The position numbers and the translations under genes were made by a program. A DNA stretch of 64,000 nt from Candidatus Woesearchaeota archaeon (GTDB lineage: Archaea > Nanobdellota > Nanobdellia > Woesearchaeales > GCA-023898365), in contig CP060219.1 of the NCBI GenBank assembly GCA_023898365.1, positions 737,934-801,933 on the forward strand. Direction: 5' to 3'. The notes under the pieces were generated by a model, which searched no databases, was not told the DNA's origin, and saw nothing but the letters and a program-made list of their open reading frames with translations. Positions 29,255 to 42,119 of the stretch are shown here, in pieces (position 1 is the stretch's first letter; the number at the start of each line of letters is the position of its first letter).

Positions 29255-29905
29255 TTACGGTTCTGCAGCTAAGTAGAACACCGCAAGAAATGCAATAATA
29301 AACAAAATAATAAATCCAAGAACTTTGGGATGCGTAAGCGTGTTTGCAATGTTTGTAGCAACGCTTGTTGTTGCAGTTAATTCTGCTTTTCGATCAGGAT
29401 CAAAGTGCGTGCTTGAACCACTGCTAGACGAACCACTTTCTCCGCCAACAGTGGTGGCACCAGTTGTTTGCCCATCAGTAATCGCAGTTGATGCAAGCAA
29501 ATCATTACCAAATGAAATAACCATGCCGATAACAACGAGTGTGATAAAAATACCAATAAGCCATCCTCTGATCGTCGCATCCTTTGTAACTGCGTTGACC
29601 ATGCTCTCATCCTTAAGACCGAACATCTTGAGCACGAAGAGAATGAAAAAGATGGCAATCGTAATGATCATAAACCAAGGAACAAGCAAGCCAACAATGA
29701 TAGTGAACGTCTTTGAAAGAATAGCGATAAACGCGATGAGCACAGCAATAATTGCTGCAAGTCCCGTTGAACTGTCCTTATCTCCAAAGATCCCAAAAAA
29801 TCCTGTTTTTTTTGAAAACCCATAGACAACTACGAAGACGAATAAGAACGTGATCATAGGAAGCAAACGTTCCATGATTGTTGCGCTAAATAATGCAGTT
29901 GCCAT
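29255..29905 (-). CDS. Paralogous polytopic membrane protein (family member 1 of 4, divergent)
   Basis: 216 aa; LLPMITFLFVFVVVYGF aligns with conserved DVLLPF..F segment of the three downstream paralogs; Gly/Ser-rich loop. Confidence 0.55.
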   Translation of the reverse strand: MATALFSATIMERLLPMITFLFVFVVVYGFSKKTGFFGIFGDKDSSTGLAAIIAVLIAFIAILSKTFTIIVGLLVPWFMIITIAIFFILFVLKMFGLKDESMVNAVTKDATIRGWLIGIFITLVVIGMVISFGNDLLASTAITDGQTTGATTVGGESGSSSSGSSTHFDPDRKAELTATTSVATNIANTLTHPKVLGFIILFIIAFLAVFYLAAEP

Positions 29906-29907
29906 TG

Positions 29908-30552
29908 TTAGTTTTTGTCAAGAGCGTCGTATAATTTTGCAAGTCTTTTTGCCTCAAGTTCTTTTATTTTATTTTTTCTCGCTTCTCCTTCAAGTCCTTT
30001 GAGCGAATCATCCTCGTTGCTACCCACAATGAACTTGTAAATGAGGCCAAAGACTAAGACCATGATTAAAAGCGACTGCGTGTTTCGATCTCGAAGGAAA
30101 CTCAGCCAACCGGGAAGAATGACAACGTTTGCTGCAGTTAAGAAAATGTAGACGACTGCTATGAGTGCTACCCACGGAATAAAAGTTTTTGAAATAAATG
30201 CAAACTTTCCTGTGCCAAGCACATTGAGCATGATCAGAAGCATGATAACTGCAACAATAACAACAGAAACATTTGGAAGCGCCTTGTTCATAATGTCAAC
30301 GACATCCATCCCGTTTGGATAGCCGCCTGTGACGTGCGGGATGATGACGCCAAGTGCGAGCGCAAACGAGATCATTGCGTTAAAGCCACGAACCCGTTTT
30401 GCTTTGTTTTGATCACTGTTCTTTGGATCGCCAAGAATTTTTGTTTTTTGCAAGATAGCAAAAACTATAGTAAATACGAGTACGAACGGTAAGAGTACGT
30501 CCGAGAGGCCAATGTCGTCCAAGGCGCGTACGCCATCTTCAAGTAAAGTCAT
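29908..30552 (-). CDS. Paralogous polytopic membrane protein (member 2 of 4)
   Basis: MTLLEDGVRALDDIGLSDVLLPFVLVFTIVFA...; shares N-terminus and hydrophobicity profile with 30588-31187 and 31258-31836. Confidence 0.6.
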   Translation of the reverse strand: MTLLEDGVRALDDIGLSDVLLPFVLVFTIVFAILQKTKILGDPKNSDQNKAKRVRGFNAMISFALALGVIIPHVTGGYPNGMDVVDIMNKALPNVSVVIVAVIMLLIMLNVLGTGKFAFISKTFIPWVALIAVVYIFLTAANVVILPGWLSFLRDRNTQSLLIMVLVFGLIYKFIVGSNEDDSLKGLEGEARKNKIKELEAKRLAKLYDALDKN

Positions 30553-30587
30553 TTTCTTGTTTAGTAGGATGTTAGGTTGTTACATAC

Positions 30588-31187
30588 TCATCCTTCAGTT
30601 TTTTCTTCGACAGGAGTAGAGCCTGTTTTTTTGCCAATTCCGTGCCAATCAAAATACTCTTTTTCTTTTTTCTCACCACCACCAACAATAAATCGGTAGA
30701 TGAGGCCAAAGACTAAGATCATAATAATAAGTGATTGCGTGTTTTTGTCACGCAAAAAATAGAGCCAGTTTGGAATGTTTGTAATATTTGCCGCGCTTGT
30801 AAAAATATACACAACAATCACTAAGGCAATCCAAGGAACCCATGTTGCGACAAGTCCACCAAAGGTTCCTTCGCCAAAGATGTTTAGCATGATAAGCACC
30901 ATAACAAGCGCAATTACTACGAGTGAAATGTTTGGCAAGGCGGTATTGAGAATAACAACAATGTCTGCGTTATGCGGATACAGGCCTTTGACATGCGGGA
31001 TGATGACGCCAATTGCCATGGCAAGCGCAATCATCGCATTGAATCCCTTTGCTTTATCATCAGTTCCAAGAATGTTTGATTTTTCTAAAACAGCAAAGAC
31101 GATAGTAAAGATAATGATAAAGGGGAGGAGCACATCGCTTAATCCTAAATCCTCAAGGGCGCGTACGCCGTCTTCAAGTAAGCTCAT
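30588..31187 (-). CDS. Paralogous polytopic membrane protein (member 3 of 4)
   Basis: MSLLEDGVRALEDLGLSDVLLPFIIIFTIVFAVLEKS...NAMIALAMAIGVIIPHV. Confidence 0.6.
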   Translation of the reverse strand: MSLLEDGVRALEDLGLSDVLLPFIIIFTIVFAVLEKSNILGTDDKAKGFNAMIALAMAIGVIIPHVKGLYPHNADIVVILNTALPNISLVVIALVMVLIMLNIFGEGTFGGLVATWVPWIALVIVVYIFTSAANITNIPNWLYFLRDKNTQSLIIMILVFGLIYRFIVGGGEKKEKEYFDWHGIGKKTGSTPVEEKTEG

Positions 31188-31257
31188 TTTCTTTTGTCTA
31201 CCTCACGAATGTGTAATGATTTTCCTTGTTGTGATATAAAAACTTTGTTGTTTTGCA

Positions 31258-31836
31258 TTAATCTCCTTGTTTGTCTCCGCTGCTGCTCTTAGTTGATCCG
31301 CCCATGACCAGCCACATGATGCCGCCAAGAAGCACGAGAAGCACAACCGCCCCTCCTGATTCATTACTCCAGATGCTTTTGATGAATCGACTGATGTAGT
31401 CCATCCATCCAACGGCATCAAGGAATATGACCAGGACTGCGATAAGTGCAAAGATTAGAAAGAATGTTTTTGTCCAACCTTCTAACGCAAACGATTTATC
31501 AGACCCATCGTGGGTGAGTGCCCCGTAGAGCAACATAAAGGCAAAGACGATGACAAGCACCAGGACTGTGCGAGAGAGCATGATGCTAATGTATTCAACA
31601 AGTTGCAAAGATGCAACAACAAAGAGCGCAATTGAAAACGCAATCATTGCGTTTAAGTTCTTTCTTGTGGTTGTCTCTGTTTTATCCGTATTTCTGTTCG
31701 TGAATGTTTCTTTCCCAAAGAACTGCGTCTTTTCAAGAAACGCATATACGAGAGTAAATATGACTAAGAAGGGGAGTACGACGTCGTACACACCAATGTC
31801 ACTCATAAATTCTACGCCGCTTCGAAGCAAGCTCAC
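31258..31836 (-). CDS. Paralogous polytopic membrane protein (member 4 of 4), GTG start
   Basis: VSLLRSGVEFMSDIGVYDVVLPFLVIFTLVYAFLEKT; GTG start at 31836 supported by paralog alignment (conserved SLL..GV....G..DV.LPF). Confidence 0.55.
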   Translation of the reverse strand: MSLLRSGVEFMSDIGVYDVVLPFLVIFTLVYAFLEKTQFFGKETFTNRNTDKTETTTRKNLNAMIAFSIALFVVASLQLVEYISIMLSRTVLVLVIVFAFMLLYGALTHDGSDKSFALEGWTKTFFLIFALIAVLVIFLDAVGWMDYISRFIKSIWSNESGGAVVLLVLLGGIMWLVMGGSTKSSSGDKQGD

Positions 31837-32023
31837 CGATCATTCACCCTGCTTTTTAAAGAGTAGCGCCATATATAAATCTTTTTGTTTTGACAAGGGA
31901 TTTTACTTCGATCAAAGAAAGCGATGTGCAAAGAAGCTCTTAAACGGCTTTTTTTGTTCGCGTGAGAAAAAACTTTTTAAATGTGAGTTTTCTAAATGAT
32001 TTTTGTAAGTGGTGAGAGCTTTC

Positions 32024-33238
32024 ATGGCAAAAAGAAAGAGAGGGGAGTTGGTAAAGGTTTGGGAGTATGATGCGAAAGCTCCTCTCTTGTCTGCACCAAC
32101 ACCTGCTGTTCTCAATGATACGCGTGGCGTGATTATTGCAACTGCTGATGGTCATGTTCAGTTTGTTGACAAAGATGGAAAGCTCGTCTGGTCTTTTGCG
32201 GCTGTTGCGAAGGTTTCTGCGCAGGAAAGCATGTTTCTTGAGCAAGAAAAAGTGAATGCGATTATTGGCCCTCCTATTGTTGTTGATGTTAACGCTGATG
32301 GCAGTCCTGAAATAATTTTTGGCACTGAGCACGGCATGTTATACACGCTTGATTCTGATGGAAAAAAACTTTGGGAGTTTGCAGCAAAAGGACCGATCAG
32401 ATCGTCGCCTCTTGCTACTGATCTTACTGGTGATGAAGGATTAGAAATTGTGTTCGGTTCTTCAGATAAGCATTTATACATATTAACAAATGAAGGAAAG
32501 CTCATCTCTCGCTACGCATATGATGTGGGAATTGAATCAACGCCTGCACGCATCGGAAGACAAATCATATTTGGAGATAATGATGGCGTCGTTCATTCTC
32601 TTGGACCGAAAGGAGAAGATAATTGGACGTTTGAAACCGGAGCGCGCATCGTAACCGAACCTCTTATTGTGCGTTTGCTCGATGACGAGTTCTACGTTCT
32701 TGTCGCTTCAACAAACGGCATTCTTTTCGCACTACATCTTTCCGGCGATTTGCTTTGGAAATTTGAAACGGGTGGTGCTATTATTGGACAACCAGTAGTT
32801 CACGATCTTGATGGTGATGGCAAACCAGAAATTGTTGTGGGCTCGTGTGATAATTTTGTCTACGCAATTAGAAATAATGGCGATTTGTATTGGTCGTACG
32901 AAACCAATTTTTGGATAGCGTCCTCTCCCATTGTTAAAGATCTTGATGGTGATGGCACGCCGGAAGTTATCGCGGGAAGTTACGATCATCATATTTATGT
33001 GCTTGCAACCGAAGGAAATTATAATTTAGATTATGTTCCCGGTATTGCAGGGGTAGTCAATCAAGCATCCTATTATTCGGAAGTCATGACTGACGAACCT
33101 GGCACGATGGTTGCAAAGCTTATTTGGAAGTATAAAACCGAAGGCATGTTGGTTGGTGGCGTGTTTCTGCCCTATAACCATAATTTGGTAATGGCTTCAA
33201 AAAACGGTATAGTTACGGTGCTTGCGCATCGTGAATGA
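32024..33238 (+). CDS. Beta-propeller repeat protein (PQQ-like / FG-GAP-like DxDGDG repeats), no obvious signal peptide
   Basis: Repeated ~40-aa units with D.DGDG.PEI(V/I)(F/V)G and (L/F)(Y/W)..(T/S)G; ATG 32024 with GGTGA 9 nt upstream (track start is GTG 32009). Confidence 0.6.
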   Translation: MAKRKRGELVKVWEYDAKAPLLSAPTPAVLNDTRGVIIATADGHVQFVDKDGKLVWSFAAVAKVSAQESMFLEQEKVNAIIGPPIVVDVNADGSPEIIFGTEHGMLYTLDSDGKKLWEFAAKGPIRSSPLATDLTGDEGLEIVFGSSDKHLYILTNEGKLISRYAYDVGIESTPARIGRQIIFGDNDGVVHSLGPKGEDNWTFETGARIVTEPLIVRLLDDEFYVLVASTNGILFALHLSGDLLWKFETGGAIIGQPVVHDLDGDGKPEIVVGSCDNFVYAIRNNGDLYWSYETNFWIASSPIVKDLDGDGTPEVIAGSYDHHIYVLATEGNYNLDYVPGIAGVVNQASYYSEVMTDEPGTMVAKLIWKYKTEGMLVGGVFLPYNHNLVMASKNGIVTVLAHRE

Positions 33239-33253
33239 TGAGGTGAAGAGTTT

Positions 33254-34069
33254 ATGGTAGAACAAATTGTTTCGAGTCCAGATGAAATTCGTAGAGTGAG
33301 AACCTACATTGAAGGGTTTGATGAGCATTTGCAAGGAGGAATTCCTCACGGGCATATTTCGCTTATCGCAGGAAGTGCGGGTACGATGAAGTCGTCCGTT
33401 TGCTTTAACATTTTGTATGGTGAAGCAGTAAATGGTCGCATCGGTTTGTATCTTTCTTTAGAACAGAGCCATCAATCTATCCTAAACCACATCATTAACA
33501 TGGGATATAATCTTAACCTGGTTAATATTGTGGTCATAAAGGATCTTGCTGATTTCCAACAAGATGTTGCAAAGGTGAAGAACTCCCATGATAAAGGAAC
33601 AATCATCATTGTAGATATTGGCGTTATTCGAAAAGAAGTAAAGGATGTAAAGATTGATGAGAATCGAAGTTGGCTTAATGTCATAAAGAATGTGGTTAAG
33701 ACAGTAAAAGACACTGTCGGACTTGATGTGTTCACTCTTGATTCGATGAGCGCACTCTATGTCCTTAGCAGATTCAAGAATCCTCGCATCGAACTCTTTT
33801 ACATTTTCGAGTTCTTACGTGATGCAGACGTAACATCGCTGCTCATCTCAGAAGCACCTTCTGACGGATCCCGCTATGGAGAGTTTGATGAAGATTTCTT
33901 AAGCGACGGCATTATTCATTTGCGTCTTGCCGCGTTTCGTCGACGAATTGTTAGAGAAATATCTGTGGTAAAAATGCGTACGACGAAGACAAATAATGAT
34001 TTGTTCAGTCTCGAATTTGAAGGTGGACGTTTTAAAGCAATGTACGGCGGACAGAATCCTCTGCTTTAG
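33254..34069 (+). CDS. KaiC/RadB-like RecA-superfamily ATPase with degenerate Walker A
   Basis: YIEGFDEHLQGGIPHGHISLIAGSAGTMKSSVCF (KaiC-like N-terminus, Walker A with G->M: GSAGTMKS), Walker B IIIVDIG; 15-nt gap after upstream gene. Confidence 0.7.
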   Translation: MVEQIVSSPDEIRRVRTYIEGFDEHLQGGIPHGHISLIAGSAGTMKSSVCFNILYGEAVNGRIGLYLSLEQSHQSILNHIINMGYNLNLVNIVVIKDLADFQQDVAKVKNSHDKGTIIIVDIGVIRKEVKDVKIDENRSWLNVIKNVVKTVKDTVGLDVFTLDSMSALYVLSRFKNPRIELFYIFEFLRDADVTSLLISEAPSDGSRYGEFDEDFLSDGIIHLRLAAFRRRIVREISVVKMRTTKTNNDLFSLEFEGGRFKAMYGGQNPLL

Positions 34070-34110
34070 AGACCAAACCTTTTTAAATCTGTATTGACAG
34101 GGAATATTTC

Positions 34111-35694
34111 ATGGTAGATAGTGTGCTCGATCAATTAGAACGTCCTGATGAAGCAGCAAAGCTTCTTGTCAAGCACGGTTTCATCAAGAGCAGCCATATG
34201 AGCAAATACAAAAAGGATGATGCAAAAGGCTTCATGCTTACAAAAGAAGCAATAGAAAAATATTATCCTGGAAAATCTATCCTAGTCGATCCCGCACATG
34301 CTGATGAAGAAATTGATGAAGAAATTACAGTGCGCATGGCCGGTCAGTTCATGAAAACAGGGTATCCCAAACCCTACAAACGATGGCGACTATCTTTTGA
34401 AAGTATGAATGAAACACCTGAAGAAATGTATTACTGGGTGCTTGACCATTTGCGACTTGACGGAGGATTTCCAAACTATATTAAGATAACTGATGTGATG
34501 AGTGCCTCTGAACAATCGACCTTGTTTGGTAATCACCAGCAAAAACTTGCCGCGCAGCAAGACCGCGCAGCAAATTATTTGCGAGGAATCAGTGAACTTA
34601 TCAGAACACTCTTTACTATTGTCAGAGAAATTCGTGTCATCAAAGAACGTTTAATGATTTATGAAAAAGCACCAAAAGACAAGAACTACGATGTTACGCT
34701 GAAAGGAATTTATGTTGATTTTGCAGAAGGCGGCGCGCAAAATCCTTCAAGTGTGTTCGGTCTTGCAAACAAGGTGGGGTTCACGCTCCTTCCCGATGTG
34801 TTCTTTAACACCATGGTCTATGACGATAATCAATTGTCAAAAGCAATTGATGGAACAAAAAAAGACAACGGCATGGAATTTAACGAACAATTCAAAAATA
34901 CGGTGCGCAGAAAATTATCTTCCTACATTAATTGGAAGTTGCACACTGAAAAAGAACTTCATTCTCGTCAAAAATATCAACTCGCGTATTTGCGCCAACA
35001 CTGGAATGTGATCAAGCTCTACGCGGATTGGCTTAAACCATACTTAAAAGTTTCACGTCGCATGCAACAAAATCCTCGCCATCAAGACAGTGTTGATTTG
35101 ATAGGTGCATTTCAAGGTGCGATGACTGATATCGAATTCTTAGCATACAAACCAGGAAAAGTTATGCCTGTCGTGCTTGCAACCTTTCATTATCGATCAC
35201 GGCCAACCATGTCTTACCAGCAAGAATATCAGCGAGCAGCTGCATTCACAGGACGAGTCGATATGGATCTTCGTGCTTATGGATGGACTGCTGATGATAT
35301 CAAGAGTTATGTTCGTATGCGCCAAGAAGAAGATCTTGAGATACTGTCCTGGGCAGACAAAAACATTGAAGCGGCCATGGAGAGTTTTGGAGATGAACTA
35401 CGCAATTACTTAGACGAAGCAGAAAATTTAGGAAAGAAAAAAGACGATGGGGATGCGTCAAAGAAAAAATCATCTAGTACAACAATTAATGTCCTTGAAC
35501 CATTCATATCGCTCTTTGGCGGATTTGGAGAAATGGGAAAAATGGTTGGCAGCGTTTTTGCACCTTTCAAGCCAACAAAGAAAGCAAAAAGTTCAGGTTC
35601 TCCGGATCGTATCAAACCAGCAAAGATGGCATCAGGAGCAGCGTTTAATATGATCAAGTTCTACAAAAAAAGTCACGGCATGATGACGTGGTAA
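34111..35694 (+). CDS. Hypothetical 527-aa protein (operon member, no recognisable domain)
   Basis: ATG 34111 ~25 bp downstream of ttttaaat; C-terminal Gly/Lys-rich tail. Confidence 0.5.
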   Translation: MVDSVLDQLERPDEAAKLLVKHGFIKSSHMSKYKKDDAKGFMLTKEAIEKYYPGKSILVDPAHADEEIDEEITVRMAGQFMKTGYPKPYKRWRLSFESMNETPEEMYYWVLDHLRLDGGFPNYIKITDVMSASEQSTLFGNHQQKLAAQQDRAANYLRGISELIRTLFTIVREIRVIKERLMIYEKAPKDKNYDVTLKGIYVDFAEGGAQNPSSVFGLANKVGFTLLPDVFFNTMVYDDNQLSKAIDGTKKDNGMEFNEQFKNTVRRKLSSYINWKLHTEKELHSRQKYQLAYLRQHWNVIKLYADWLKPYLKVSRRMQQNPRHQDSVDLIGAFQGAMTDIEFLAYKPGKVMPVVLATFHYRSRPTMSYQQEYQRAAAFTGRVDMDLRAYGWTADDIKSYVRMRQEEDLEILSWADKNIEAAMESFGDELRNYLDEAENLGKKKDDGDASKKKSSSTTINVLEPFISLFGGFGEMGKMVGSVFAPFKPTKKAKSSGSPDRIKPAKMASGAAFNMIKFYKKSHGMMTW

Positions 35695-35696
35695 CC

Positions 35697-36299
35697 ATGG
35701 AAGATCTTGAAGGCTTATCAACAAAAGAAAAACTTGAACTCTTGCGTAAACGACGTCAACGCGTAGAAAAAGAAGCAGAAGAGCGCATACAAAAAGAAAA
35801 AGAAGACGAAGAAAAGCAACTTAAAGCAATAGAAGAATTGCTTGCACGAACGGAAAAGGAAGCGCGAGAAGAACTCGAAGAACGACTTCGCGAAAGCGCA
35901 TCTGAAGCGCCACTTGACGCACTTGAAGAAGAACTCATGCAGCAAACGCATGAAGACTATGAACAAAAAAAACCCGAAGAACCACCCGTTGTCGCCTATA
36001 ACGAAGAAGGTTTTGGTACGCAAGATAAGTATGCGCCGCTCACGTCAGGCGGATCAGTTGGAGATTTTTTATCATTGCGAAAAGAAAGTCAATATCGCTC
36101 CTTAAGTGTCGAGGAACAAAGCTTCGTCTCACTCATGAGCTATCATGTCAATGTCTCAAACGCAGAGTTTTTAGGATCGCAAAAACAAGGCGGCATCGAA
36201 GAATTAGCATCGTATGCCACGCCCACTCTTAACGTTGAAGTGCTGCGCATGGTCGACGCGCCAAAACAAAACGACGTGTACAAAACAGAAGACAAATGA
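35697..36299 (+). CDS. Acidic Glu/Lys-rich coiled-coil protein
   Basis: MEDLEGLSTKEKLELLRKRRQRVEKEAEERIQKEKEDEEKQ...; ATG 35697, 3 nt after upstream stop (track start 35688 is GTG). Confidence 0.5.
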   Translation: MEDLEGLSTKEKLELLRKRRQRVEKEAEERIQKEKEDEEKQLKAIEELLARTEKEAREELEERLRESASEAPLDALEEELMQQTHEDYEQKKPEEPPVVAYNEEGFGTQDKYAPLTSGGSVGDFLSLRKESQYRSLSVEEQSFVSLMSYHVNVSNAEFLGSQKQGGIEELASYATPTLNVEVLRMVDAPKQNDVYKTEDK

Positions 36300-38314
36300 T
36301 ACATCAAGATGATTTGCCCGATAATATTTTTCGCGAACACCGCATAGAACAACCCATATTCTTAGAAGAAGACTTTACCAAAGGAGAAACAACTTTTGGA
36401 CCAAAACAAATAGGAACAACCACCAACCCCATGGCAAGTCCTCTTGAATCATTCAAAGCAAAATTGCGCGAAGGAGTAGGAAAAATAGAATTTGGCTTTC
36501 TTGGTTCAGGAAAAACAAGCAGCCAACAACCTTCGCCAGAAGCAGTCAGCGCAGAAGAACGCTTAGCGCTTAGAAATTTAGTGCGTATCAACAAAGTGCG
36601 CACCTCAACACACGCCGCTGTCCACATGGGTGGACTCGGCGGATTCAACCCAGAATCAGGAAGCTTCTCAGACGCTGCACGTGGACGAACCCTTCGAGAA
36701 ATCGAACGAGCAGTAGACTTCGCTGCTGACGCAACAGACGGCGGCGCCATCGTCTTTCACGTAGGAGAATTTACGCGGCCAGTAAGTGAAATCAAAGAAA
36801 AAACTGGTGACAAACTTTTCGAAACCTACGAAGACGAAGGGAAAACAGGACAAGAACTCATCGTTGACACCACGACAGGAAAAGTCACGGGTCTACCAAA
36901 AGATCAACCAATCATTATTCCGAAGTGGACTTTGGCAAAAGATAAGGGGTTGAAGGTAGGTCAAAAATACGAATCGGTAAATGGAGATCAAGTCGTTCTT
37001 CGAGAAGGAGACTACATTGATCAAATTGGAAGAATCATTCCAAGATATGATCTAAACAATTATGATAAACGTATTCCTGAAGGAGAGCTTAGCAAAGATA
37101 AGTACGAAACTGAAGAACTCAATTGGGAAAAACTAGGTAAGCGTGCCGAACAAGAAAATAAGTACATTGCCCAATGGAATAAAGAACATCCTGATAAGCA
37201 AGTTGCAGAAGTAACTGCAGCGGTGCTTTTTGCTCGATTACAAAAAGAACAACAACTCCTTCAAGCAGAAGGACAAATTAATTATTATCAGCAAGGGTAT
37301 GAAGGATACATAAGGCGATTGGAAGAAGAAAAGAAAATTCCTGAATATGAAAAAGAAATTGAAACATTATCAAAAATTGTTCGTGACGAAAAGGTGCCTC
37401 AGAAAGATAGAGAAAACTATTATCAACGGTTGATTCAACTTCAGAATAGAGTGGATTCAATTCCAGAAGAAGTAAGGGATGCGCGACGTCACTTTAGTCA
37501 CGCTCACGCATCAGTCACTGCTGCTACTGCTCAGCGTGAGCAGGCGAAAAAGGAGTGGAATGCATTACAAGATCCTGAGACGTATGCAGTAAAGCGTGCT
37601 GCGGAAACCATTGCCAAAGTTGGTATGGAAACGTATTACAAAACAAAACAGATCAAACCAAAGGAAGCGTTTTTTGCAGCTCCTGAACATTGGGCGATTG
37701 AAAGTTTTGGTTCGCATCCTGAGGAACTCAAAAAATTGGTGCTTTCTTCTCGTGAACAAATGGTTAAGCAACTTGTCAAAACAGGTGTGAACGAAGAAGA
37801 AGCTAAGAAGCTTGCAAAAACACATATTAAGGCAACGATTGACACGGGTCATTTGAATATGTGGCGCAGTAGGTTTAAGCGCAATCCTGGCGAGTCCGCT
37901 GAAGATCGTGATAAGCGGTATCATAAATGGTATTTGGAACATATGGAAAAGCTTGCGAAGGAAGGCATTGTTGGTCATGCGCACTTGGCTGATAATTTTG
38001 GGTGGGATGATGAACACTTAACTCCTGGTCAAGGTAATGCTCCTATTAAGGAGACGATGAAAATCTTTGAACGGTTTGGCATGAATGATACGGTTGTTGA
38101 ACCGGGTAGTTTTAATCCGCTCACTGCCATGCCCGAAACGTGGCGTATGCTTGGCAGCCCTATTTATGCTGTTTCTCAACCGGGGAGATCTTCGTGGCGC
38201 AGTATTTATCAGGCAGATTCAGGTTTTGGACGTGCTCCATCGCAATATATGCAAGGAGAGTATGTGCCCAGTAAAGAAAACTGGCAGTTATGGAGTCAGA
38301 CTCCTTTGGAATAA
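36296..38314 (+). CDS. Xylose-isomerase-like TIM-barrel (sugar-phosphate isomerase/epimerase, AP-endonuclease-2 fold) split by a ~350-aa coiled-coil-rich insertion
   Basis: N-part ...GGAIVFHVGEF...; C-part IDTGHLNMW ... GHAHLADNFGWDDEHLTPGQGNAPIKE (cf. lDtGH and H.H..D....H..PG.G.i motifs); start ATGA-overlaps upstream stop. Confidence 0.5.
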   Translation: MIHQDDLPDNIFREHRIEQPIFLEEDFTKGETTFGPKQIGTTTNPMASPLESFKAKLREGVGKIEFGFLGSGKTSSQQPSPEAVSAEERLALRNLVRINKVRTSTHAAVHMGGLGGFNPESGSFSDAARGRTLREIERAVDFAADATDGGAIVFHVGEFTRPVSEIKEKTGDKLFETYEDEGKTGQELIVDTTTGKVTGLPKDQPIIIPKWTLAKDKGLKVGQKYESVNGDQVVLREGDYIDQIGRIIPRYDLNNYDKRIPEGELSKDKYETEELNWEKLGKRAEQENKYIAQWNKEHPDKQVAEVTAAVLFARLQKEQQLLQAEGQINYYQQGYEGYIRRLEEEKKIPEYEKEIETLSKIVRDEKVPQKDRENYYQRLIQLQNRVDSIPEEVRDARRHFSHAHASVTAATAQREQAKKEWNALQDPETYAVKRAAETIAKVGMETYYKTKQIKPKEAFFAAPEHWAIESFGSHPEELKKLVLSSREQMVKQLVKTGVNEEEAKKLAKTHIKATIDTGHLNMWRSRFKRNPGESAEDRDKRYHKWYLEHMEKLAKEGIVGHAHLADNFGWDDEHLTPGQGNAPIKETMKIFERFGMNDTVVEPGSFNPLTAMPETWRMLGSPIYAVSQPGRSSWRSIYQADSGFGRAPSQYMQGEYVPSKENWQLWSQTPLE

Positions 38315-38370
38315 TTTTATAAAGTTCATGTGCATTATTTTTTGTTACGAGGTGGGTTTGTGAAGCGATC

Positions 38371-39148
38371 TATGCATACAACGGCGCATAAACATGATAA
38401 GGAAGCTATTACGCTTGCGTATGAATTTGCAAAACACTTACATCGTGAAGTGCATGATTTTGTAAAGGCCATTGTGCTTTTTGGTTCTCAAGCAAAATCA
38501 AACAAGCCCGGTCATGACATTGACCTTCTCATTGTTGTTGATGATGTTGCGGTGCATATTGATGATGAAACTGCAGAAGCCTATCGCATTATTGTTGAAA
38601 AAATTATGCTCAAAGTTAGTAAACGTTTGCATGTGACTACTTTGCGTTTTACTTCCTTCTGGGAATATGTGCGAAGCGGTGATCCTGTTGCTATGAACAT
38701 GCTGCGCGATGGGTTACCCTTAATTGACACGGGTTTTTTTGAACCTTTGCAACTCTTACTCAAACAGGGAAGAATATTTCCAAGTGAAGAAACAATGTGG
38801 TTGTACTTGCAACGCGCAAAAAACAGTTTGCAAAATTCTCAAAAACGTATTGGCGGCGCACTTGTTGATTTGTATTGGGGGGTTGTTGATGCAGCCCACG
38901 CAGCGCTTATGCGACTCAATGTTTCTCCCCCTTCACCTCTGCACATTCCTGCATTGCTTGAAAAAGAAATGGTGGCAAAAAGTTACTTAACAAAGGCAGA
39001 TGTTGAGCTTTACAAAACGTTGTATGCTATTTCAAAACGTGTTGAACAAGGAAGAAATGATTTTCGCTCATCAGATTTTGAAGAATTATCACATAAAGCA
39101 AAACTCTTTGTTGAAAAAATTGATCACTTTCTTAGCGGAAGACCTTGA
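38371..39148 (+). CDS. Minimal nucleotidyltransferase (Pol-beta superfamily) with helical C-terminal (HEPN-like?) domain
   Basis: AIVLFGSQAKSNKPGHDIDLLIVVDD = GS...D.D NTase motif; ATG 38371 (GTG alternatives 38330/38359 in track). Confidence 0.65.
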
Positions 39149-42055: not shown

Positions 42056-42119
42056 AGTAAACCACCAGTGTTATTTCTAGCTGGAATCGATCTGGGTTTA
42101 AAAAGGTTAAGAAAAAAAT

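Follow-up and report, generated by a model that had tools for sequence, protein, structure and literature searches.

Endonuclease IV (EndoIV) of Escherichia coli (Nfo; PDB 1QTW) holds a trinuclear zinc site through nine mapped ligands (H69, H109, E145, D179, H182, H216, D229, H231, and E261). Four of these nine EndoIV-type positions are used by single-metal epimerases, which, to our knowledge, lack the five extra metal-site positions of endonuclease IV. In Methanocaldococcus jannaschii, MJ1311 (PDB 3WQO, "D-tagatose 3-epimerase-like protein") is the predicted EndoIV homologue (PMC2770678). A longer barrel of this type is encoded by g5, the fifth of six consecutive genes (g1 to g6) in a stretch of 64,000 nucleotides (nt) from Candidatus Woesearchaeota archaeon (contig CP060219.1, positions 737,934 to 801,933; hereafter the window). 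A first-pass annotation made from the letters of the window had taken g1 to g5 (32024 to 38314) as one tightly coupled operon of unknown function. The analysis reported here showed that this interval consists of two Woesearchaeota/Nanoarchaeia gene modules, best explained as independent and vertically inherited, which abut in this genome. Each is strongly conserved: module A, a β-propeller gene and a KaiC-like ATPase gene (g1-g2), and module B, g3-g4-g5, with or without a nucleotidyltransferase (NTase) gene (g6).

Gene neighbourhoods were surveyed from both modules. One genome per GTDB species was scanned with a g3 alignment, which gave about 460 tblastn-confirmed stretches, with 80 loci kept; for g2, 46 loci were obtained from metagenomes. 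Exact-protein look-ups supplied divergent g3 homologues (L003 to L005) and KaiC homologues (L006 and L007). Adjacency was counted by tblastn of the window proteins against the sampled loci, with flanks of 2.5–8 kb upstream of g3 and 3–6 kb downstream of the KaiC gene; the test for g5 was limited to loci with at least 3 kb of room. Among the 65 g3 loci with room, 58 carried a co-directional g5 gene downstream, and no KaiC or propeller gene was found in the upstream flank of g3 (0/65 loci). The KaiC gene was immediately preceded by a co-directional propeller gene at 32 of 35 other loci (median gap, 70 nt), and neither g3 nor g5 was found in the downstream flank of KaiC (0/30 loci). In L003 to L005, g3 was followed by a gene for about 200–230 amino acids (aa) and then by a PF01261 gene for about 670–700 aa, with unrelated genes upstream, and in L006 and L007 the propeller and KaiC genes were followed by unrelated genes. 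The five-gene layout was repeated only in L001 and L002, which are assemblies of the same organism.

Clustering of the open reading frames at the g3 loci yielded four families, corresponding to g3 (83 loci), g5 (72), a 200-aa family (45), and the NTase (39). By tblastn, 26 of 51 g3 loci had the NTase gene no more than 5.5 kb downstream. Across genomes, identity was 58–72% for KaiC versus 30–45% for g3 and g5, indicating that modules A and B evolve at different rates. Moreover, the g3-g4-g5 trio was kept despite altered gene order (g3-g5-g4), which argues for functional linkage rather than passive synteny. By the refuting condition set in the first-pass annotation, the single five-gene module fails, being present in no other sampled genome. 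The neighbourhood search proposed there gave a divided result: the KaiC-like and split-barrel genes were not neighbours at the sampled loci, but both sub-modules were conserved.

The five plus-strand reading frames, their tight junctions, and the motifs quoted for them were all present in the sequence as first read. Genes g1 and g2 are separated by 15 nt, g2 and g3 by 41 nt, and g3 and g4 by 2 nt (a 7-nt overlap if g4 starts at GTG 35688), and g4 and g5 overlap in an ATGA. This spacing had been interpreted as one transcription unit, a conclusion that does not follow because the 10-mer CTTTTTAAAT, present 5′ of g1, recurs in the g2-g3 gap (Table 1). The exact 10-mer has only two copies in the window: that at 31973 lies 27 nt 5′ of GTG 32009 and 42 nt 5′ of the g1 ATG at 32024, and that at 34079 lies 23 nt 5′ of the g3 ATG. 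It looks like an archaeal TATA box, and module B could presumably be transcribed independently of module A. A one-mismatch version, CTTTTTAAAC, was located on the minus strand at 42096–42105, 41 nt 5′ of the CDC48 gene start (42055), in keeping with a promoter role for the 10-mer in this genome. Scans for bacterial promoters and terminators were set aside, as the organism is an archaeon. The g5-g6 spacer contained a TATA-like TTTTATAAAG immediately 3′ of the g5 stop and a Shine-Dalgarno-like GAGGTGG 5′ of the g6 start (GTG 38360).

Table 1. Genes and promoter-like elements of the two modules (window coordinates).
Feature	Position	Strand	Description
g1	32024-33238	+	Cytoplasmic β-propeller (PQQ/FG-GAP type), 404 aa; module A
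g2	33254-34069	+	Single-domain KaiC-like RecA-superfamily ATPase, 271 aa; module A
g3	34111-35694	+	Basic protein, 527 aa, β-sheet core plus three helices of 50-60 residues; module B
g4	35697-36299	+	Acidic protein, 200 aa, E/K/R-rich N-terminal helix; module B
g5	36296-38314	+	Xylose-isomerase-like TIM barrel, MJ1311/endonuclease IV type, 672 aa; putative catalytic part of module B
g6	38360-39148	+	Pol-beta-type nucleotidyltransferase, helical C-terminal half (MNT/HEPN-like); frequent fourth gene of module B
CTTTTTAAAT copy 1	31973-31982	+	TATA-box-like, 5′ of g1; putative promoter of module A
CTTTTTAAAT copy 2	34079-34088	+	Inside the g2-g3 spacer; putative internal promoter of module B

The AlphaFold2 (AF2) model of g5 (predicted local distance difference test [pLDDT] 79; predicted template modelling score [pTM] 0.76) contained a complete eight-stranded barrel. 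Structure comparison of the model, a check recommended in the first-pass annotation, put MJ1311 first, with values of 20.8 for MJ1311 (3WQO; 20% identity), about 19 for ketose 3-epimerases, 18.9 and 18.7 for the endonuclease IV of E. coli and T. thermophilus, respectively, and about 13 for DUF692/MbnB. MNIO/DUF692 proteins (MbnB, TglH) were the closest match of g5 neither in fold nor in family models. PF01261 (AP_endonuc_2) matched g5 with 43.4 bits (gathering cut-off, 31.1) over residues 504–602 only, and it was matched by all 25 g5 family members scanned (best E 8e-21). Both motifs first noticed in this gene, IDTGHLNMW and GHAHLADNFGWDDEHLTPGQG, are within g5. The sole significant sequence match in the PDB was MJ1311 (E 3e-9 to 5e-10), over HxHxxDNxGxDDEHLxxGxGN.

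All nine ligands of Nfo had conserved counterparts in g5, namely H106, H155, E464, D516, H519, H563, D572, H574, and E602, which were conserved in 62, 62, 64, 64, 63, 62, 57, 64, and 57 of 64 full-length homologues, respectively. By hhalign, D516, H519, H563, D572, H574, and E602 paired with D179, H182, H216, D229, H231, and E261 of Nfo (the E. coli query being identical to 1QTW). In the g5 model, strands 3, 4, and 5 terminate in H106, H155, and E464, respectively, as the corresponding strands of Nfo do in H69, H109, and E145, and H106 and H155 aligned with the matching strands of MJ1311. A different register for the N-terminal half, obtained with hhalign on a trimmed g5 barrel and Nfo, was dropped in favour of strand-order mapping because it contradicts the strand count. 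From alignments and model, g5 is best described as an MJ1311/EndoIV-type barrel with a predicted multinuclear metal site and a unique, putative lid, and three metal ions may be bound. It falls outside Nfo proper, because no family model matched it and no evidence for DNA-contact residues was obtained; for R37, Y72, and L73, the DNA-inserting residues of Nfo, no counterpart was evident in g5. No canonical nfo gene was found in 1.62 Mb of sampled loci, a sample whose power is too low for a conclusion.

The insertion comprises about 270 aa (residues ~160–426; nt 36773–37573) and is located in the β4-α4 loop, on the catalytic face of the AF2 model. The first-pass description of a TIM barrel split by an insertion was correct, but the insertion is shorter than the ~350 aa given there and is not coiled coil alone, since the model contains a β-rich subdomain (~186–275) and a helical bundle (277–423). 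None of the 25 family members scanned singly gave a Pfam match in the insertion. An HxH motif within it was considered as an extra ligand and dropped, as it is not conserved. Residues 1–30 and 604–672 of g5 were modelled with low confidence though they are conserved.

The g3 protein had been called an orphan, whereas its family contains 741 representatives at 50% clustering, in addition to the roughly 460 confirmed genomic stretches. Its AF2 model (pLDDT 79; pTM 0.64) consists of β segments 66–132 and 337–392 and helices 137–186, 259–318, and 394–448, with a conserved tip motif, LKG..D..EGG.KNP.SV.GLA..VGF..LPD.FF. Model and alignment together showed a disordered linker followed by a confident last helix that ends in a near-invariant Trp. 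The protein has a pI of 9.1, and at residues ~457–485 (nt 35479–35565) a conserved hydrophobic Gly/Phe-rich segment (L-x-P-F-x3-F-x-G-F-x-E-x-F) was found between Lys-rich linkers. Searches of Pfam, NCBIfam, PADLOC, and PHROGs with g3 gave nothing, a Pfam scan of 50 members singly gave chance matches only, and a profile search of the PDB gave nothing better than E 0.23. Foldseek of the model against the PDB, also proposed at first pass, returned no significant fold match (best E 0.12; TM-score ≤0.2). No relatives of g3 were found in viral contigs. A resemblance between VEGGxKNPxSVYGLA of g3 (34717–34806; residues 203–232) and the strand-8 segment IVExGSFNxxTA...GSPIY of g5 (38093–38170; residues 600–625) was set aside as probably due to chance (hhalign probability 1.3%, E 0.04).

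At 34 of 83 loci, among them L003 (6207–7901), g3 was immediately preceded by a gene for a Kef-type cation/proton antiporter (Na_H_Exchanger and TrkA_N domains; ~565 aa), and 32 of 35 copies were on the same strand as g3, with a median gap of 69 nt. In the window, this position is occupied by the propeller-KaiC pair. Two divergent g3 homologues had no g5 nearby. That of L137 (8001–9569; GCA_964576505.1) is archaeal, with 29% identity, and is followed by TP_methylase and small mechanosensitive-channel genes. The other, at L134 (8001–9644; ENA ERZ27237583, contig k141_437621, 80.8 kb), is full length (29% identity over 498 aa) and retains the C-terminal motifs, and it lacks both g4 and g5. Four small genes precede it; several appear to encode hydrophobic or transmembrane (TM) segments, and one has only a weak match to Peptidase_S24. 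The L134 contig has a uniformly low G+C content (19–25%; overall 23%), and it looks bacterial (possibly related to the candidate phyla radiation, CPR) because it encodes a complete sigma-70 factor.

The g4 protein (pI 4.6) had no Pfam match, and only weak compositional matches were obtained in the Pfam, NCBIfam, PADLOC, and PHROGs scans. A hidden Markov model (HMM) of the 45-member 200-aa family recovered about 57 genes, including g4 of the window (E 6.5e-5, with biased composition), and these genes either separate g3 from g5 or come immediately after g5. The g3 and g4 proteins are previously undescribed families, and g5 is a variant within a known superfamily. The presence of an NTase gene after g5, noted at first pass, was supported by a PF01909 match of g6 (28.6 bits; cut-off, 21), but the gene caller placed its start at 38360 and not at 38371. 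Its GS...DxD motif is invariant. No HEPN model or PDB structure matched its C-terminal half, the PDB matches being weak and confined to the NTase core, and its PADLOC match was the candidate NTase family PDC-S09. A DPANN-wide cluster described as "MNT fused to HEPN" (cls.004259/NEQ050) occurs in a housekeeping context and has been flagged as a priority unknown (Makarova et al., 2019; PMC6393860). On the match of this description, g6 probably belongs to cls.004259.

For module A, the g1 protein matched the Pfam models Beta-prop_ACSF4 (137.4 bits; cut-off, 133) and Beta-prop_CGLA (125; cut-off, 26.8), as well as FG-GAP_3 and PQQ_2. It has the propeller fold and is not BamB, given a score of 65.9 with the BamB model versus a cut-off of 285. 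Inspection of the translation by eye, with no predictor run, revealed no apparent N-terminal signal or TM segment. The g2 protein matched KaiC (PF06745) with 117.3 bits (cut-off, 26.6; E 9e-34). It contains one RecA-like domain, unlike the two-domain clock KaiC, and its equivalog scores were all below the cut-offs (circ_KaiC, 45.9 vs 546; ArlH, 40.4 vs 215; RadB, 17.6 vs 172). The Walker A sequence GSAGTMKS reported at first pass is present at residues 40–47 (nt 33371–33394). Met45 aligns with the Gly before the P-loop Lys of KaiC (GTPGTGKT), so that the sequence departs from the canonical GxxxxGK[ST]. This P-loop had been called degenerate, with the suggestion of an inactive or regulatory NTPase and the advice to check the conservation of the substitution. 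Among 120 homologues with 58–72% identity, 119 had GxxGxMK[ST], and the Walker B LDS, the Glu of SLEQ, and the Arg of VKMR, which align with KaiC, were at least 98% conserved. The P-loop of g2 is a fixed, lineage-specific variant that appears from this alignment to be under strong purifying selection rather than decaying. With Met45 fixed and the other key residues (Walker B Asp, catalytic Glu, KMR Arg) retained, an inactive or regulatory NTPase is a weak reading, and g2 is probably still a nucleotide-binding, oligomeric switch.

The G+C content was even across the region (0.41–0.43) and equal to that of the flanks, whose genes are of the ribosomal, replication, and proteostasis classes. Identical proteins at NCBI belong to a Candidatus Woesearchaeota metagenome-assembled genome (MAG; locus tags H6502_03780/85/95), in agreement with the DPANN origin suggested at first pass. 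Directly upstream of g1, on the minus strand (29255–31836), were four tandem paralogues of 216, 214, 199, and 192 aa. They are hydrophobic and membrane-protein-like by eye, with a common N-terminus (M[ST]LLEDGVRAL.D.GLSDVLLPF) and no Pfam family on record, and tblastn with the 192- and 199-aa members matched none of about 130 other Nanoarchaeia loci.

Pfam, NCBIfam, PADLOC, and PHROGs were run on all seven proteins and assigned none of the locus to a characterized system, as the first-pass annotation, which recognized no known system, had anticipated. From NCBIfam came sub-threshold matches only. Its fold calls were borne out by Pfam, with a β-propeller for g1, KaiC for g2, none for g3 and g4, and AP_endonuc_2 for g5. 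PADLOC and PHROGs gave zero matches for g1 to g5. A housekeeping, non-mobile setting is indicated by the nature of the flanking genes, the lack of PADLOC/PHROG matches and viral relatives, and the even G+C content; the same observations, in a syntenic setting, speak against the defence role that had been left open at first pass.

We tentatively favour, at somewhat less than even confidence, a reading of module B as a housekeeping metallo-phosphoesterase complex with coiled-coil partners, acting preferably in the processing of nucleic-acid ends or lesions and not in defence. In this complex, g5 would be the catalytic part and would carry out metal-dependent phosphoester hydrolysis on the end or lesion of a polymer. 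Nucleic acid is the favoured polymer, on which g5 may act in the cleavage of apurinic/apyrimidinic (AP) sites or the cleaning of 3′ ends, as endonuclease IV does. Its insertion on the catalytic face is a probable lid or docking platform. The g3 protein, with its long three-helix stalk, conserved tip, and Lys-flanked hydrophobic C-terminal segment, and the acidic g4 protein, with its E/K/R-rich helix, would be non-enzymatic partners, binding g5 by coiled-coil contacts and serving to position or gate it. The tails of g3 and g5, conserved although AF2 leaves them disordered, are also as expected for interaction segments.

Several points weigh against this reading. The activity, metal content, and formation of the complex are predictions from sequence and models. 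No NCBIfam endonuclease IV model matched g5 at E ≤ 0.1, and the equivalence of its three N-terminal ligands follows from strand order and a weak alignment to MJ1311, the hhalign comparison with Nfo being not significant (E 0.13–0.17). MJ1311 itself reportedly conserves the nine EndoIV ligands but has no DNA-binding groove. The g3 homologues of L134 and L137 imply that g3 need not work only with g5, and the linkage of the NTase, at only about half of the g3 loci, could be plain synteny. Furthermore, the membrane-targeting-like segment of g3 and the Kef-type gene upstream in 34 of 83 loci point to the membrane and not to DNA.

These last two observations make a membrane-associated phosphoesterase the main rival, though we consider it unlikely: g3 would be a peripheral scaffold, and g5 would hydrolyse or rearrange a phospholipid head group or a membrane-bound phospho-sugar, for example in the remodelling of scavenged host lipids by lipid-auxotrophic episymbionts. 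Trinuclear metal sites are also found in phospholipase C-type enzymes, and the high pI of g3, the TM-like segments encoded upstream of its homologue in L134, and faint, non-significant Foldseek matches of its β core to lipid-binding folds (Cyt toxins and START domains) fit the proposal. These matches, however, are those with E ≥ 0.12 and TM-scores ≤ 0.2; g3, g4, and g5 all lack a TM segment or signal peptide; the same-strand Kef linkage, seen at fewer than half of the loci, may reflect synteny in one clade; no gene of lipid metabolism is linked; and DNA and free or phosphorylated sugars are the substrates of the enzymes nearest in structure. A bolder version, which we regard as improbable, is that g3-g4-g5 is an undescribed machine restricted to ultra-small episymbiotic prokaryotes. 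Here g3, which has a homologue on the sigma-70-bearing, possibly CPR-like L134 contig, would be a membrane-tethered coiled-coil scaffold of new fold, displaying at the cell envelope a TIM-barrel enzyme with a trinuclear metal site that might, for instance, process host-derived lipids or nucleic acids during symbiosis. If this were true, module B would belong to the acquisition apparatus that has long been sought in DPANN cells.

It also appears improbable that g5 is an ordinary sugar or sugar-phosphate isomerase or epimerase of the D-tagatose/psicose 3-epimerase type, with g3 and g4 as unrelated syntenic neighbours. The E-D-H-E tetrad of the epimerase family is a subset of the conserved g5 residues, and NCBI labels the homologues only as "TIM barrel protein", but this reading leaves the insertion and the conserved disordered tail unexplained. 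The best NCBIfam epimerase match of g5, fructoselysine 3-epimerase, scored 17.2 bits against a cut-off of 305. The reading is disfavoured because of the five further His/Asp ligand positions, conserved in 57–64 of 64 species, and because the association with g3 and g4 outlasts changes in gene order. Least probable by far is a single five-gene system in which the KaiC-like ATPase drives or regulates a g3-g5 complex, like the ATPase-plus-nuclease modules of repair or defence. Tight spacing on a single strand, the same layout in L001 and L002, and a RecA-superfamily ATPase beside a putative nuclease and coiled-coil partners recall the ATPase-plus-nuclease logic of Mre11-Rad50 and HerA-NurA. The neighbourhood counts (0/65 g3 loci with KaiC or propeller; 0/30 KaiC loci with g3 or g5) disfavour it, and the TATA-like box in the g2-g3 spacer, the different rates of the two modules, and the zero PADLOC matches also stand against it. 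The separation of modules A and B stops a mistaken "five-gene system" annotation from spreading.

Woesearchaeota and their relatives are abundant and uncultured, and in genomes as minimal as theirs almost any conserved gene is expected to be important. Module B occurs at about 460 confirmed sites in species-representative genomes, and two of its three core proteins are without a Pfam family. No description of the cassette was found in the literature on DPANN or Woesearchaeota and this fold or endonuclease IV. The module is a conserved piece of genomic dark matter that lends itself well to experiment, as g5 combines a fully conserved, predicted EndoIV/MJ1311-type metal site with a unique, putative lid and dedicated partners. 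Its substrate, once worked out, would assign a function to MJ1311-type barrels generally, annotate hundreds of genomes, and indicate if AP sites or ends are processed in these archaea by an unconventional enzyme.

Compared with described proteins, g2 aligned with KaiC domains and, from end to end, with three KaiC-like proteins of archaea that have a single domain, PH0186 (2ZTS), PH0284 (2DR3), and SSO2452 (2W0M) (E 1e-13 to 7e-9), with which it shares one RecA-like domain of about 250–270 aa. Unlike these, g2 and its homologues have Met for the Gly before the P-loop Lys (119/120) and are paired with a β-propeller gene (32/35 loci); this P-loop variant and propeller partner are a new subfamily feature. 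The resemblance of g3 to prefoldin covered about a fifth of the protein and was not significant in Foldseek, with no sequence relationship, and the remaining matches were to generic coiled coils. In comparison with ketose 3-epimerases and sugar isomerases (8XIV, 7DZ2, 5ZFS, and 6WN6), which have neither the insertion nor partner proteins, g5 keeps five extra residues of metal-ligand type. Unlike Nfo, g5 carries an insertion over the catalytic face and is encoded with two coiled-coil partners. With MJ1311 it has in common the His of strands 3 and 4 and the DIGHxN motif, although significant sequence similarity extends over about 50 residues only. To this compact barrel of 293 residues, g5 adds the insertion of ~270 aa, an N-terminal extension of ~35 aa, and a conserved C-terminal tail of ~70 aa.

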